Source of the DNA: a virus
Virus record (IMG/VR): IMGVR_UViG_3300036985_002246
Span: 96,001-160,000 of that record
Strand: one strand, 5' to 3'
Length of the DNA: 64,000 nucleotides
Part shown: one piece after another, positions 5,331-10,746 of the stretch
Layout of the letters: every line of letters starts with the position of its first letter
How positions within the stretch are numbered: position 1 is the stretch's first letter
Translations under genes and position numbers: made by a program
The notes under the pieces: generated by a model
What the model was told of the DNA's origin: nothing
The model's input: the letters and a program-made list of their open reading frames with translations, nothing else
Database searches by the model: none

Positions 5331-6323
5331 ATGGCGCGTGACCCGTCCCTCTGGTGGTCAAATTTGGCGGACTACGAGGAGTGCCCTCAGAAGCTCCTGT
5401 GGAAGCGCGGCCACGGCACGATCGACCTTGGGCGAGGCCCTGGACGTGGGAAGCTCCTGCCTGACACGAAGAAGTCCGCCCACCACGCAGTCATGGGCAA
5501 CGTGCTCTCGGCGGCGATCGAGGCGCTCTACAACGAGGAGTTGTGGCGTGACCCGGCCAATCTCTCGGCTCGGCTGGAGGAACTCACCCGCAAGGAGTTC
5601 AACCTTCAGATCCTGAAGAACCATATCGTCTGGTCCGAGACTCCCGACAGGCCCAAGTGGGACGAGGCAGCCCCGCGTGAGGTGCTGCTCAAGACCTGCC
5701 TGGACGGGATCCTGAACTACCTCAAGACCATGAAGCGGAACCGGCTGCTCGGCCCCTACGCCAAGTCTGAGGTCAATATTTTCGCCCGCGTGGGGGACAC
5801 ACCGATTGCAGGGCGACCTGACCTGATCATTCGTCGAGAGTCACCCAAGCTCTCAATCCTCGACGGGAAGAACTCCTCGACGCCGGGCAAGTACACCAAC
5901 CCGGACCAGCTACGCTGGTACGCGCTCTGCTACTTCCTGGCGCACGGGGAAATGCCTGACCGGCTGGCGTTCGTGTACTTCCGGTTCCCTGAGGGCTGCC
6001 CGCCCAAGGACTACGACGGCGACCCGGAGACGTGGACCGGCCTCGTGGAGGTCTCCTGCACCAAGGGGGACCTCAAGGACCTCTCCCACCGGGCGGTCGA
6101 GACGCACCAGGCGATCACGAAGGAACTCTTCGACCCAACCCCGAGCACGAAGTCCTGCCAGTTCTGCGACTTCCAGGAGGTTTGCCCCGCTCGCATTGAG
6201 CAGAAGGCGGCGAACATTCGCAAGAAGCCGCCGAAGTCGGAGGCAGAGGTGGCGCTCGACTCCTCTACGGGGATCATGGATCTCGGGTTCTTTGGGGGTC
6301 CAGAAGTGGACTCCAAGCCGTAA
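5331..6323 (+). CDS. PD-(D/E)XK nuclease, AddB/Cas4-like with Fe-S Cys staple
   Basis: N-terminal ECP; AGRPDLI...ILDGKN; QLRWY; C-terminal CQFCDFQEVC. Confidence 0.85.
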   Translation: MARDPSLWWSNLADYEECPQKLLWKRGHGTIDLGRGPGRGKLLPDTKKSAHHAVMGNVLSAAIEALYNEELWRDPANLSARLEELTRKEFNLQILKNHIVWSETPDRPKWDEAAPREVLLKTCLDGILNYLKTMKRNRLLGPYAKSEVNIFARVGDTPIAGRPDLIIRRESPKLSILDGKNSSTPGKYTNPDQLRWYALCYFLAHGEMPDRLAFVYFRFPEGCPPKDYDGDPETWTGLVEVSCTKGDLKDLSHRAVETHQAITKELFDPTPSTKSCQFCDFQEVCPARIEQKAANIRKKPPKSEAEVALDSSTGIMDLGFFGGPEVDSKP

Positions 6324-6336
6324 AGTGAGCCGAGTC

Positions 6337-9315
6337 ATGGCTGCCCCCTGGATTCTCCACCACGAAGACTGCCTCAAGACCATGGCTGCCATGGAGGCTG
6401 ACTCTGTGGATTCCGTCGTCTGTGACCCGCCCTACGGCCTGGAGTTCATGGGCAAGGATTGGGACCACGGTGTCCCCGGTGTCGAGTTCTGGATCGAGGC
6501 GCTGCGCGTCGCGAAGCCTGGGGCCTACCTACTCGCGTTCGGCGGGACACGAATGTACCACCGGCTCGCGGTCGCGATCGAAGATGCGGGGTGGGAGATC
6601 CGCGACGCAATCTCGTGGCTCTACGGCTGCTTGAGCGAGGACACAGAGGTCCTCATCAACGGGGCGTGGGTCCACTACCGTAGCGCCATTGAAGGAAGTC
6701 TCGCATTGTGCTACGACGCGGAGAATGACACGTTCTCGCAGCAGCCAGTCGAGCAGCTTTTCGTCTACGACTACGACGACACAGCCTACCGAATCGAGTC
6801 AGATCGCACCGATCAAGTCGTCAGCCGAAATCACCGCTGCATCGTCTGGCGTGACGGACGCTGGGGGTTCGTCCTCGCAGAAGAGGTGGCACGGGAACAG
6901 GAAGCGAGAGTACCCGTTCTCGAAGCCGTGTCAGACGTGCTCGACGCCCTTTCTCTGCTTCAACCGAACGCAGGCAGTTCGCAACCGGCTCTGCGCCGGG
7001 TGTCTGACGAAGGTTCACCGGGGTCCGCGCAAGAAGCCGGTGGCGCTTCGGGAGGGCATGACCGAGATCGCGTGCTCTGTCTGCGGCAAGAGGGTGTGGA
7101 AGCCGCGATCAGCCTTGAAGGTGGTGAAGCTGCCCTCGTGCTCCCGGCGGTGCAACGGGAAGCTGCGCGGGGCGGAGTGGGCGAAGCACGGGCACAAGGG
7201 CTCGGCAGCGGTGAGCCCGGAGGGCCGAGCGTCTGCTGTTGCAAAGATGACCGGCCCGCTCAATCCAGCGTGGAAGGGCGGGGTCACAATCTTCAGGAAG
7301 CACGGGAGCTACAAGGGGGTGCGATACGTTCGGTGCCCGCTGGATTTCCTTCCAATGGCGCGGAAGGACGGCTATGTGATGGAGCACCGTCTGATCGTGG
7401 CGAAGGTGCTGGGTCGCCGTCTCCTTCGGACGGAGACGGTGCATCACGAGGATCACGACCCGACGAACAATGCTCTGTGCAACCTGTCGCTGTTCAAGTC
7501 GAATCGGGACCACAAGTTGTACGAGCATCACGGTTCACCACTTCCGATCTGGCGAGGATCACCCCCCTCCACCTGACCGGGAAGGTGTGGTGCGTGAAGG
7601 TGCCGACCGGAGCTTTCGTCGCTCGTCGTAACGGCAAGGTGTTCGTCACAGGCAACTCAGGCTTCCCGAAGTCGCTCGACGTGAGCAAGGCAATCGACAA
7701 GGCGGCTGGTGCAGAGCGGGAAGTGGTAGGCCAATACAATTTGCCGTCCGATAGTACATCAGGGCATGCCGGAAAGCCTATCCATTCACATGTTGCGGGG
7801 TCTTTTCCACTTGCTCCTACTCCAAACGGAAGAGATATTACAGCCCCCGCCACCGACGCCGCTCGTCAGTGGTCCGGCTGGGGCACCGCGCTCAAGCCCG
7901 CGTGGGAGCCGATCATCGTCGCACGCAAGCCCCTGGGTACACCTGGAACAAACGTCGTGGCCGTGGTAGAATCTGCTCTGAGACGGCAGGGCGTCGTAGG
8001 GGAGATCCTGTGGAAGCCAGACGATGCAAAGGCTGCGGAGAAGTCAAGGAGCACAAGGACTTCGTACTCAACCGAACAGCAGAAAACGGCGGTAACATCT
8101 GCCGCAAATGCCGTCGAGAGAGGGACGCAAAGCACCGATCCGCTAACCGCGACCTCTACAGAGAACGGTGGAATCAGTGGTCCGCCGCGAACCCAGGCAG
8201 GTCCAGAGAACTCGCTCGCGCAAGCGAACGAAAACTACGCAACGAAGTGCTCGACGCCTACGGAGGCGCGTGTGCTTGCTGTGGGGAGCAAGAACGGGAC
8301 TTCCTCACCCTCGACCACATCAACGGCGGGGGTACAGCGCACCGGAGAGCTACACACGGAAAGGTCTACGGGGCCGTCCGAAGAGCAGGATTTCCTCCCG
8401 ACTATCGAATCCTTTGCTGGAATTGCAACTGGGCTTACCGGCTCTATGGCTCATGTCCACATCAAACGAGACAGTGATGGCTTCTTCGTATGGCCTGCGG
8501 GGCTACCCAGGAGCGCAGCAGGGGGCTCGCTAACCGTCGCGGCGAACGTCCTGAAGCATGGCACGGGTGGGATCAATATCGACGGGTGCCGGATCGAAAC
8601 AGCAGACAAACTTCTCATCCATACTCGGGGTGATTCTGGCAAGCGGGATACACGTCTGACCTACTCAGGAGGTGATTTCCCTCTTATTATGGAGCGCAAG
8701 GCCACTGCTGGTCAGGCTTTGGGACGCTGGCCCGCGAACGTGATCCTCGACGAAGAGGCCGCTGCGCTACTGGACGAGCAGACGGGCACGCTCGCGAGTG
8801 GGAAGGCGGCGCGGGGGGGACACCGACGCAAGGATTCGATGGGTGCGACCGGAGGGGCTGCTCTTGGCGGAAACGCCGATGGTTCCCTCCGAGCGGACGA
8901 GAACGCAGGCACGCTGTACGGGGACTCCGGCGGTGCTTCGAGGTTCTTCTACACCGCCAAAGCGAGCCGCTCCGAGCGCACGCACGGCGGGGAAGTGGTC
9001 AATCTGCACCCCACGGTCAAGCCAATCTCCCTCATGCGCTACCTCGTGAGGTTGGTGACGCCTCCCGGCGGCGTGGTGCTCGACCCGTTCTGCGGTTCTG
9101 GCTCAACGGGCGTTGGGGCAATCCTGGAGGGTTTCAACTTCGTGGGTTGTGAGAGGGAACTGGCGTCGGTCGAGACTTCCAGAGCCAGGTTTGAACTCGC
9201 AGTTCTCGTCTCTGTCGGTGGTGTGAAGAACCCCTGGGTGGACGACCTAGAGGTGCCCCCTGACGAGGTTGAGCCCCCGGCTGTCTCCTCAATCGAAGAC
9301 CTGTTCGGCTTTTGA
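6337..9315 (+). CDS. Beta-class N6A/N4C DNA methyltransferase carrying an intein and a second in-frame insertion
   Basis: VCDPPY catalytic motif; WLYG|SGFPKS; KPAWEPIIVARKP; RWPANV; HPTVKP; VLDPFCGSGSTG SAM motif. Confidence 0.9.
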   Translation: MAAPWILHHEDCLKTMAAMEADSVDSVVCDPPYGLEFMGKDWDHGVPGVEFWIEALRVAKPGAYLLAFGGTRMYHRLAVAIEDAGWEIRDAISWLYGCLSEDTEVLINGAWVHYRSAIEGSLALCYDAENDTFSQQPVEQLFVYDYDDTAYRIESDRTDQVVSRNHRCIVWRDGRWGFVLAEEVAREQEARVPVLEAVSDVLDALSLLQPNAGSSQPALRRVSDEGSPGSAQEAGGASGGHDRDRVLCLRQEGVEAAISLEGGEAALVLPAVQREAARGGVGEARAQGLGSGEPGGPSVCCCKDDRPAQSSVEGRGHNLQEARELQGGAIRSVPAGFPSNGAEGRLCDGAPSDRGEGAGSPSPSDGDGASRGSRPDEQCSVQPVAVQVESGPQVVRASRFTTSDLARITPLHLTGKVWCVKVPTGAFVARRNGKVFVTGNSGFPKSLDVSKAIDKAAGAEREVVGQYNLPSDSTSGHAGKPIHSHVAGSFPLAPTPNGRDITAPATDAARQWSGWGTALKPAWEPIIVARKPLGTPGTNVVAVVESALRRQGVVGEILWKPDDAKAAEKSRSTRTSYSTEQQKTAVTSAANAVERGTQSTDPLTATSTENGGISGPPRTQAGPENSLAQANENYATKCSTPTEARVLAVGSKNGTSSPSTTSTAGVQRTGELHTERSTGPSEEQDFLPTIESFAGIATGLTGSMAHVHIKRDSDGFFVWPAGLPRSAAGGSLTVAANVLKHGTGGINIDGCRIETADKLLIHTRGDSGKRDTRLTYSGGDFPLIMERKATAGQALGRWPANVILDEEAAALLDEQTGTLASGKAARGGHRRKDSMGATGGAALGGNADGSLRADENAGTLYGDSGGASRFFYTAKASRSERTHGGEVVNLHPTVKPISLMRYLVRLVTPPGGVVLDPFCGSGSTGVGAILEGFNFVGCERELASVETSRARFELAVLVSVGGVKNPWVDDLEVPPDEVEPPAVSSIEDLFGF
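6628..7656 (+). mobile_element. Intein (343 aa) in the DNA methyltransferase
   Basis: Starts CLSEDTEVL, block B SRNHR, ends VWCVKVPTGAFVARRNGKVFVTGN followed by Ser; exteins rejoin as WLYG-SGFPKS. Confidence 0.9.
6851..7576 (+). CDS. HNH homing endonuclease overprinted in the +1 frame inside the intein (start uncertain; frame open from 6689)
   Basis: Zn-finger pairs CQTC, CAGC, CSVC, CSRRC; NPAWKGG; EHRLIVAKVLGRRL...VHHEDHDPTNNALCNL. Confidence 0.8.
   Translation: MTDAGGSSSQKRWHGNRKREYPFSKPCQTCSTPFLCFNRTQAVRNRLCAGCLTKVHRGPRKKPVALREGMTEIACSVCGKRVWKPRSALKVVKLPSCSRRCNGKLRGAEWAKHGHKGSAAVSPEGRASAVAKMTGPLNPAWKGGVTIFRKHGSYKGVRYVRCPLDFLPMARKDGYVMEHRLIVAKVLGRRLLRTETVHHEDHDPTNNALCNLSLFKSNRDHKLYEHHGSPLPIWRGSPPST
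7936..8532 (+). mobile_element. Non-intein in-frame insertion (~199 codons) in the MTase; boundaries approximate
   Basis: Interrupts ARKPL...TVAANVLKHGTGGINIDGCRI, which is normally contiguous in this MTase family; no splicing motifs seen; no stop in the MTase frame. Confidence 0.7.
8010..8477 (+). CDS. HNH endonuclease overprinted in the +2 frame inside the MTase insertion
   Basis: AGGGGAG RBS 5 nt before GTG 8010; CKGC/CRKC finger; YGGACACCGE...LTLDHINGGG...RILCWNCN...CPH. Confidence 0.85.
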   Translation: MEARRCKGCGEVKEHKDFVLNRTAENGGNICRKCRRERDAKHRSANRDLYRERWNQWSAANPGRSRELARASERKLRNEVLDAYGGACACCGEQERDFLTLDHINGGGTAHRRATHGKVYGAVRRAGFPPDYRILCWNCNWAYRLYGSCPHQTRQ

Positions 9316-9329
9316 GCGTAAGGAGTACC

Positions 9330-9593
9330 GTGGACGTGAAAGCTCGGATCGAAGCTGCAATCAAGCGGCGGGACGACCTCCGCTCTCAGAAGGAGCGGAC
9401 ATTGGGCCGCCTCGAAGAGGCAGAGAAGAATCTCGAAGCTCTCCGCGCCGAGTGCCGGGCGAAGAACCTCGACCCGGACGGTTTGGCCGACACCGTGGCC
9501 AAGCTGGAAAAGGGGCTCCAGACCTCAATCTCGGACCTGGAGACGCAGATCTCCGAGGCCGAGAGTGCCCTCAAACCCTATCTGCAACCGTGA
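9330..9593 (+). CDS. Small coiled-coil protein (possible middle piece of split SbcC)
   Basis: AGGAG RBS before GTG 9330; heptad pattern throughout. Confidence 0.7.
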   Translation: MDVKARIEAAIKRRDDLRSQKERTLGRLEEAEKNLEALRAECRAKNLDPDGLADTVAKLEKGLQTSISDLETQISEAESALKPYLQP

Positions 9594-9603
9594 GAGAGCC
9601 CGC

Positions 9604-10746
9604 ATGATCTTCAGCGTATCCAAGCGTGACCTGGAAGCCGCCCTCAAGGTGGTCAGCCACACCGTCTCCATGGGCGGCAGCGACATTTCCGCCCACTACC
9701 TCTTCCGGCAGACCCAGGCTGGGTCGAAGACCCTGGAGGTGCTTGCCTACAACGGGCGGGTGTTCGCGTCCTGCCCGGTGGTCGCCTCCTTCGAGGAGGA
9801 GGGCAAGTCCTTCACGGTCGAGGCGAAGCGGGTCCACTACCTGCTCGGTGCCGTGCCCGACGACGCTGTGCTCAAGGTGTCGAGCACGGGCGCGGGCGAG
9901 GCCACGATCAGCACCGGCAGGGGCAAGAACGTCTTCGCCAGTCTCGACCCCGACCTCTTTCCCTACTGGGACGAGCTTCTCGCGAACTCGACGGGGACGG
10001 CGGTGCTCCCGGCGGACCGGCTGCACGCTGCGCTCTCGCACGCCAAGTCGTTCATTTACGACCAGGAGGCGAAGGCCCCTCACCTCTGCGTGGCGGAGTT
10101 CCGCAAGGGCTGCCTCTACTCGACCGACCAAATGGCCGTGTCGATCGTCAAGGTGGACGGCATGGAGGGGGCTGCGATCCGCATTCTCGGCAAGGACGTG
10201 GGTGCCGTGACCTCCTTCCTGTCCTCCTTCAAGGAGGACCTCGTGGAGGTCTGGGAGTCCGACCGTGCCATGTTCCTCAAGCGTGGGGACGGGGCGGTGT
10301 TCGGCGAGAGCAAGTTCGCCAGCCGCTTCCCCGACATTGCCGTGGACTGGTCGATCGAGGACGACCACTGGATCGACCTCCCACGGGTGGAGATCGCCAA
10401 CGCGGTGAAGTTCCTCGCCTCTGGTGCTCGGTGGGAGGACACGCTGCTGCGAATGATCGTGGGGGACGGGTCCGTGACGCTCTCCATGATCGCGGCCAAC
10501 GGGAAGCCGATCACCCTCGACGTGAAGGCGGTGGCTCAGGGGACTCGGGACGGCGACGTGCCTGCCCTTCCGAAGGAGGGGTTCCCGATCTCCAACGCCT
10601 ACGTCTCGAACCTCCTGGCGAACTTCTCGGGTGAGACGGTCCGCTTCGGGATCTCGAAGAAGGGCAAGGGCGGTTGGGTCCGTGTGAAGGACGAGCGGGG
10701 TAAGGACACCTACCTCACGACCGTCGCATGGCTGAAGACCGCCTAA
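9604..10746 (+). CDS. dnaN: DNA polymerase III beta sliding clamp-like protein
   Basis: MIFSVSKRDLEAALKVV; ~380 aa; DPDLFP, LYSTD, SRFPD motifs resembling DnaN. Confidence 0.8.
   Translation: MIFSVSKRDLEAALKVVSHTVSMGGSDISAHYLFRQTQAGSKTLEVLAYNGRVFASCPVVASFEEEGKSFTVEAKRVHYLLGAVPDDAVLKVSSTGAGEATISTGRGKNVFASLDPDLFPYWDELLANSTGTAVLPADRLHAALSHAKSFIYDQEAKAPHLCVAEFRKGCLYSTDQMAVSIVKVDGMEGAAIRILGKDVGAVTSFLSSFKEDLVEVWESDRAMFLKRGDGAVFGESKFASRFPDIAVDWSIEDDHWIDLPRVEIANAVKFLASGARWEDTLLRMIVGDGSVTLSMIAANGKPITLDVKAVAQGTRDGDVPALPKEGFPISNAYVSNLLANFSGETVRFGISKKGKGGWVRVKDERGKDTYLTTVAWLKTA

Follow-up and report, generated by a model that had tools for sequence, protein, structure and literature searches.

An in-frame insertion in the DNA methyltransferase (MTase) gene of a phage known from a sediment metagenome hides, in another reading frame, a gene for an HNH endonuclease. 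The insertion lies in IMG/VR virus record IMGVR_UViG_3300036985_002246 (199,475 bp), of which positions 96,001 to 160,000, a stretch of 64,000 nucleotides (nt) referred to here as the window, were analysed; all positions follow the numbering of the whole window, and all features listed are on the + strand. The insert occupies positions 7936-8532 and the hidden gene positions 8010-8477. We consider it probable that this insert is a mobile homing-endonuclease cassette that resides inside a coding sequence without splicing. Elements of this kind have already been published under the name of ShiLan domain, and the insert at 7936-8532 is, judged by sequence comparison, a separate and widespread lineage of the same kind.

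Boundaries and layout of the insertion

About 50 homologues in IMG/VR that lack the insert (empty alleles) read ...ALKPxxEPxxxARKPLxG/TVAANVL..HGTG without interruption, the slash marking the insertion site, and the closest of them (L066) reads ARKPLIS/TVAANVLKHGTG. When metagenome contigs with empty alleles are aligned to the window, the match ends at 7931-7936 and resumes at 8532-8533, with only the L-x-G codons between. Empty alleles and contig break points therefore place the insert at 7936-8532, with a length of 597 nt and boundaries good to about 2 codons. An original prediction, made from the letters of the window, had proposed an in-frame insertion of about 199 codons at this place and had called for an alignment to insertion-free alleles, and it is this alignment that fixed the boundaries. 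The same homologues demonstrate that the segment is not a normal domain of the whole MTase family.

The MTase frame contains no stop codon across the insert. A search with the peptide that this frame encodes retrieved at least 50 metagenomic MTases of the PF01555 family with a homologous insert, which shared 38-87% identity over approximately 100% of the insert length. Only 129 nt of the insert (74+55 nt) lie outside the HNH open reading frame (ORF). In the MTase frame, which will be called the host frame, the window peptide reads ..NVVAVVESALR at the start of the insert and DSDGFFVWPAGLPR at its end, and the corresponding motifs, NVLxxVESxLRxxGxxGEI for the start and HIxRDxxGxFxWPxxLP for the end (with DGxFxWPxxLP as the family motif), recur in approximately 50 carriers. 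The linker between them consists, in the window, of 66% S/T/A/G/P/E/Q.

The nested HNH gene

The reading frame of the nested gene is placed one nt ahead of the MTase codons (-1), and the full stretch that is open in this frame extends from 7869 to 8477. The gene starts with the GTG at 8010 and stops with the TGA at 8475-8477. A purine run of the GGAG type was found 5-7 nt ahead of an ATG or GTG at the homologous place in nested copies, and in one of these (L007) the start is probably a TTG located one codon later. The claim that a second-frame HNH gene with its own ribosome-binding site (RBS) occupies 8010-8477 was thus upheld, both by this conserved run and by homology. Concerning the latter, the HNH of Streptomyces phage Galactica gp103 was matched by tblastn with an E-value of 4e-23, and the PHROG families retrieved were phrog_2255 (HNH, E 2e-18) and phrog_1035 (endonuclease VII, E 2e-12). 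Pfam returned nothing for the HNH ORF at E<=0.01, and a PDB sequence search with the HNH profile gave a single match, to a group II maturase, with E 0.2.

The pattern CxCC..DH..GGG..CxNCN..CPH is invariant across nested and free-standing relatives, the invariant residues being C88, C90, C91, D102, H103, C136, N138, C139, N140 and H151. Hence, the catalytic DH, the downstream N, the metal-binding H and the zinc cysteines of the HNH/endonuclease VII class are all present. The AlphaFold2 model of the protein reached a predicted local distance difference test (pLDDT) score of 86.9. No further copies of the window HNH were found in the 199-kb record. Production of the nuclease as an MTase-HNH fusion by -1 frameshifting was also considered and rejected: in loci L006-L010 the HNH frame is stopped 12-42 nt before the start, and there is therefore no conserved frameshift entry into the HNH gene.

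Selection for an open host frame

Given the relation between the two frames, any xTG-A or xTA-R dicodon of the HNH frame would introduce a stop codon into the MTase. This logic of the original prediction is correct, and no such dicodon is present in the window copy. The comparison that carries the argument was made with relatives gathered by HNH protein search, a procedure that is blind to whether the host frame is open. All ten of the nearest HNH relatives in IMG/VR (49-92% identity) were found nested in the same relative frame, and the MTase ORFs that host them are open over 380 (in a truncated locus) to 939 codons. Below approximately 48% identity the relatives are free-standing, and their MTase-equivalent frame is closed by 6-12 stops. 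Counts were made with the third frame as a composition control: in eight non-redundant nested copies the MTase-equivalent frame had 0 stops and the third frame 47, whereas the counts for nine free-standing relatives were 69 and 153, respectively. The depletion of stops in nested versus free-standing HNH genes corresponds to p=2e-7 in Fisher's exact test. Across the family there is, in consequence, strong comparative evidence that the host frame is kept stop-free by selection, which is a property shown by the family rather than by a single sequence.

Two selective regimes within one insert

The host-frame alignment of eight carriers was back-translated, and pairwise nt differences were calculated for each MTase codon position. 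In the exteins (7882-7935 and from 8533 onward), differences amounted to 0.20-0.26 at position 1, 0.14 at position 2 and 0.58-0.67 at position 3, MTase position 3 being the most variable. The same position was the most variable in the 5' part of the insert (7936-8009; 0.44, 0.38 and 0.65 at positions 1, 2 and 3; p=3e-4) and in its 3' part (8478-8532; 0.41, 0.42 and 0.70; p=7e-4). Within the HNH overlap (8010-8477), differences were 0.30, 0.53 and 0.37, and the most variable position was MTase position 2, which is position 3 of the HNH codons (p=3e-15). Additionally, amino-acid identity in the overlap was 56% in the HNH frame versus 37% in the MTase frame. These codon-position patterns indicate that the middle of the insert evolves as a nuclease and that both of its ends evolve as MTase-frame protein under purifying selection. 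Because both ends evolve in this manner, the insert would be translated in the host frame.

A structure model was built for a compact carrier (P0006) from 44 aligned sequences. In blocks of ten residues, the MTase core mostly reached pLDDT 87-96, the N-end module of the insert was modelled as a helix and a strand (pLDDT 73-78), the C-end module as a beta-hairpin (pLDDT 72-81), and the middle of approximately 140 residues as disordered (pLDDT 25-35). The insert ends are thus predicted to be selected, structured adaptor modules that flank a disordered linker. The original prediction had described the insert as a tolerated loop, a description that suits the disordered part overlapping the HNH gene and is too passive for the two ends, considering their purifying selection and predicted structure. 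A tentative suggestion is that the end modules form a device that neutralises the insertion at the protein level; in a milder form of this suggestion they might act as a clasp joining the cut ends of the host fold, and in a stronger form they might mediate self-excision of a non-Hint type.

Mobility and distribution of the cassette

Between the window and the closest carrier (L004, protein P0002), nt identity is 88-98% over approximately 7860-8580, a block of about 700 bp, and 30-65% on either side of it. At the amino-acid level, identity is 57% in the C-extein, 87% in the insert and 92% in the HNH protein. From this profile, the block has the appearance of a cassette that was copied recently, along with short co-converted stretches on either side. 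In the same carrier, about 137 extra residues (~115-252), not alignable to the window, were observed between the N-extein and the segment preceding the insertion, and these residues may be another insertion.

In a C-extein tree of 47 carriers and 51 empty alleles, the two types were intermixed, and carrier status required 18-20 changes, of which at least 7 were forced by well-supported branches. The window itself paired with the empty allele L066 (support 96). Contigs with empty alleles are present in the same kinds of metagenome as carriers. In a 2025 freshwater metagenome (X4), contigs were observed that are 94-99% identical to the cassette at 8141-8289 and 8407-8557, along with an empty-allele contig (…ITLARKPLVG/TVA…); a single sample therefore contains the cassette as well as empty targets.

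Weighing of the evidence and of other explanations

Four results weigh against the reading of the insert as a non-splicing mobile cassette, or at least against parts of it. Firstly, stop avoidance is not significant in the single sequence: synonymous resampling gave 1.4 expected stops and a probability of 0.19 of observing none, and with the codons of the gene itself, shuffled within the gene, this probability was 0.13. The original prediction of selection on the host frame is thus sustained across the family and does not follow from the window copy considered alone. Secondly, as regards the beta-beta-alpha-Me fold of this nuclease class, although many of the top fold neighbours of the HNH model are HNH nucleases (Gme HNH, the HNH of Cas9 and Cas5, Cap5 and T4 endonuclease VII), all of these matches are weak, with Foldseek E 0.03, VIA Z 4.4 and a root-mean-square deviation of 3.9 over 66 residues. 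Thirdly, a tree in which the exteins of the window and of L004 (P0002) are sisters was not rejected by the approximately unbiased test (p=0.375); it is therefore the identity profile, and not tree conflict, that speaks for recent transfer. Finally, the selection observed on the end modules is, as far as codon patterns reveal, a sign of MTase-frame translation and as such is compatible with removal of the insert after translation.

Among other explanations, the HNH might not be selfish, or might have ceased to be purely so: the MTase and the HNH protein could constitute a functional pair, for example in a restriction-like or addiction relation in which the MTase protects the DNA from the nested nuclease, or the insert could be a DNA-binding or regulatory appendage of the MTase. 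The physical coupling of MTase and nuclease, the host-frame selection on the end modules and the age and diversity of the family, in which inserts share 38-50% identity among carriers, would all fit such a role. It is nevertheless unlikely, since carriers are scattered among empty alleles on the MTase tree, a near-identical cassette is found in a divergent MTase, the MTase-frame sequence of the linker evolves freely, and the closest free-standing relatives bear no annotation beyond that of phage HNH endonucleases.

The removal of the insert after translation, by an unrecognised self-excision (non-Hint splicing or autoproteolysis) in which the end modules are catalytic, would account for the MTase-frame conservation and the predicted structure of both ends, and the residue following the insert (+1) is a conserved Thr (TVAANVL). 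However, this Thr is just as conserved in empty alleles. Moreover, the first residue of the insert varies among carriers (G, V, S, A, I, K or T), its last residue is L, S or P, and no conserved nucleophile or Asn was found at the termini. No Hint, intein or protease family was matched: the host-frame peptide of the insert hit no Pfam, PHROG or PDB family, Pfam searches with six host-frame inserts at E<=5 gave just low-complexity noise, and a PDB sequence search with the profile of host-frame inserts returned none. Self-excision is accordingly regarded as quite improbable.

Group I introns are a common vehicle of HNH genes, and the insert could be an intron or another RNA element that is spliced out, its open MTase frame being incidental. 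The authors who described the hidden HNH of the ShiLan domain could not exclude splicing experimentally (PMC11855218). An intron is very improbable in the present case, given that no Rfam family was matched in 5800-9700 on either strand at E<=1, that the insert has just 129 nt outside the ORF, and that the predicted folding of 7900-8570 was no better than that of shuffled sequences (z-score 0.44). In addition, no carrier has a stop in the host frame, and both non-HNH ends display an MTase-frame codon periodicity that is unexpected for spliced-out RNA. Concerning transcripts, a 260-nt sediment metatranscriptome contig (X5) matches 7600-7691 with zero differences, and the window phage or a near-identical one was therefore present in that RNA library; RNA contigs assembled from public reads gave none over the insert. 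The non-splicing character of the insert, with no intein motifs, which the original prediction had put forward, is thus backed by the null Rfam, Pfam and PDB searches and by the host-frame evolution of the ends.

A dead MTase or a spurious HNH ORF in chance overlap is hardly credible and is refuted by the family comparison as far as computation allows: although GC-rich DNA has long open alternative frames, with 1.8-3% of the 156-199-codon windows in the genes of this phage open in that relative frame, purifying selection acts on the exteins of carriers, the MTase motifs are intact, the HNH protein has the homology and the invariant catalytic and zinc residues described above, and more than 50 loci have kept the same arrangement.

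The host gene and its upstream intein

The coordinates of all features are collected in Table 1. The MTase ORF is stop-free throughout from 6196 to 9315, and its longest form begins with a TTG at 6196, the probable start being the ATG at 6337. With two insertions, namely an intein and the insert described here, the gene comprises 992 codons. The product matches PF01555 (N6_N4_Mtase) in Pfam with E 8e-24 and presents the motif CDPPYG followed by DPFCGSGST (S-adenosylmethionine motif of the FxGxG type), an order expected for the beta class. A homologue model matched CcrM, M.BceJIV, M.RsrI and M.PvuII with E-values of 1e-8 to 4e-5, the best being CcrM (6pbd, E 1e-8). The MTase family is shared with mycobacteriophages ShiLan, Lilac, Dorothy and Cjw1, and phage records contained no megablast match to the complete gene. 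The public gene call at this locus is a 573-amino-acid fragment (P0001, ~7594-9315) that begins within the C-terminal part of the intein, and the MTase on record is therefore truncated; the public annotation calls neither of the nested HNH genes.

Table 1. Positions of the MTase gene, its two insertions and their components in the window
Feature	Position	Strand	Basis
Host gene, beta-class N6/N4 DNA MTase	6337..9315	+	ORF, PF01555 match, alignment to ShiLan gp65 and Lilac gp101
Intein (C1 ... GN/S)	6628..7656	+	Both ends align with inteins of ShiLan gp65 and Lilac gp101
Intein-nested HNH ORF, 295 codons, +1 to MTase frame	6689..7576	+	ShiLan hidden HNH relative, PHROG HNH families
MTase extein, left flank of insertion site, ends ...WGTALKPAWEPIIVARKPL	7657..7935	+	Codon position 3 most variable
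Insert, 597 nt / 199 codons, open in MTase frame	7936..8532	+	Empty alleles, contig break points, homologous inserts
Insert 5' end module, MTase frame (..TNVVAVVESALRRQGVVGEI..), also carries HNH RBS	7936..8009	+	MTase codon position 3 most variable
Shine-Dalgarno-like AGGGGAG	7998..8004	+	5-nt spacer to HNH start
Hidden HNH / endonuclease-VII-like gene, 155 codons + TGA	8010..8477	+	Homology, invariant residues, codon-position variability
Insert 3' end module, MTase frame (DGFFVWPAGLPRSAAGGSL), 3' of HNH stop	8478..8532	+	MTase codon position 3 most variable
C-terminal MTase extein, begins TVAANVLKHGTG, holds motif I (DPFCGSGST)	8533..9315	+	Homologue alignment

The centre of the intein is low-information sequence in the host frame, and it contains an HNH gene of its own in another frame. 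The latter shares 29% identity with the hidden HNH of ShiLan (E 4e-10) and matches PHROG HNH families with E 2e-15. In this case, the avoidance of host-frame stops is significant in the single sequence, since 6.8 stops were expected and none was observed (P=0.0005). By these similarities, the ShiLan-like HNH of the window MTase gene is the one at 6689-7576 inside the intein, not the one at 8010-8477. Four further IMG/VR loci (L095, L098, L136 and L139) were observed in which MTases of the same family carry inserts of 173-216 codons with copies of ALKPxxEPxxxARKP on both sides, as in ShiLan. The ORFs hidden in these inserts are similar to the HNH of the window intein and that of ShiLan (E 2e-9 to 4e-6). 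Because these loci are metagenomic, the ShiLan type is not confined to mycobacteriophages.

Comparison with known systems

The ShiLan domain was named by Gosselin et al. 2023 (PMC9957025) in the mycobacteriophage methylase gp65. A later study (Arsenault et al. 2025, PMC11855218) established that this domain hides an out-of-frame HNH, with no intron or intein features and no RBS reported. The same study added another example, Pacc40 gp60, a divergent helicase-methylase with a hidden HNH/AP2-like ORF. In both papers a third way was proposed, in which the insert is a harmless retained loop, without evidence on its translation.

The insert at 7936-8532 is like the ShiLan domain in several respects. 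The host MTase belongs to the same family, the window exteins aligning with ShiLan gp65 and Lilac gp101; the insert has approximately 200 codons, is free of host-frame stops and encodes an HNH on the same strand in a different frame; neither intein nor intron signatures are found, and a patchy distribution goes together with signs of transfer; and the host-frame peptide is predicted as a disordered loop. The resemblance to which the original prediction had pointed thus holds in kind, whereas the two are not the same element. The window HNH, an endonuclease-VII-like protein of 155 amino acids with DH..GGG..NCN, is unrelated to the ShiLan HNH, which has 195 amino acids and is HNH_3-like: BLASTP between the two gave E>1, and tblastn to ShiLan gp65 gave no match. 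The window insert has a clear, conserved RBS, while none was reported for ShiLan; its HNH starts 75 nt into the insert, versus 18 in ShiLan, and stops 55 nt before the insert end, versus a stop within the last four bases. Furthermore, the window family is without the duplicated ALKPxxEPxxxARKP flank, having one canonical upstream copy and DGxFxWPxxLP downstream, and its insert does not begin, as that of ShiLan does, with a diverged copy of 11-13 downstream extein residues. The 3' module was also inspected by eye as a possible degenerate copy of the upstream AWEPIIVARKPLxG, similar to the ShiLan duplication, and this was not supported, as only W and P align. By the boundaries that the ShiLan authors gave, the window insertion site lies 13-14 codons downstream, and a further difference from ShiLan is the host-frame conservation of the end modules.

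Pacc40 gp60 is comparable in having an out-of-frame nuclease-like ORF within a methylase ORF that stays open, but its host methylase family and site differ, and no sequence similarity to the window HNH was found. Inteins with out-of-frame homing endonucleases have also been described, namely actinophage inteins with an endonuclease-VII-like enzyme in frame 3 (bioRxiv 10.1101/2025.01.02.630785) and a cyanobacterial dnaX intein (bioRxiv 10.64898/2026.09.14.751524). The nested nuclease, the open host frame and the endonuclease-VII-like class are common to these inteins and the window insert; in contrast, protein splicing removes theirs, and 7936-8532 is without a splicing domain. Free-standing phage HNHs (Galactica gp103, Arthrobacter phage gp46-49 and PHROG 2255/1035) are homologous to the window HNH and share its zinc and catalytic residues, but they are intergenic or stand-alone, with 6-12 stops in the alternative frames.

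Proposed mechanism and significance

It is proposed that an HNH gene of the free-standing type, equipped with its own RBS and GTG, became embedded between the catalytic strand of the MTase (..EPIIVARKPL) and the TVAANVL..HGTG segment. Ribosomes translating the MTase would read straight through the insert and add approximately 25 structured residues of the N-end module, a Ser/Thr/Ala-rich disordered linker of approximately 155 residues and approximately 18 structured residues of the C-end module. The sequence of the linker would be a by-product of the HNH frame, kept stop-free, and the MTase is presumably functional despite this appendage. The HNH protein would be made by internal initiation at 8010 and presumably cuts empty MTase alleles near ARKPLxG/TVAANVL during co-infection, after which repair would copy the cassette together with short flanking tracts. 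Indirect support for such homing comes from the identity block shared with L004 and from the patchy distribution. Retention of the insert in the mature protein, the activity of the MTase, the activity and target of the HNH protein and its internal initiation are what we infer from the comparative evidence.

To our knowledge, homing endonuclease genes have been thought to survive in essential or conserved genes solely by means of introns or inteins. The window MTase gene carries two strategies side by side, its intein having an out-of-frame HNH of the ShiLan type and its second insertion hiding an HNH without any intein, and it would therefore offer a convenient test object. From a practical point of view, gene callers split or mis-annotate genes with hidden HNHs. 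The plain internal RBS found here would explain in a simple manner how hidden nucleases are translated. With respect to inserts of the ShiLan kind in general, the window family adds comparative evidence for their translation in the host frame, considering that stops appear to have been purged from this frame in every nested copy and not in free-standing relatives. If the end modules did act as a clasp, RNA splicing and protein splicing would be joined by a third route by which such a gene could persist within a conserved coding sequence.

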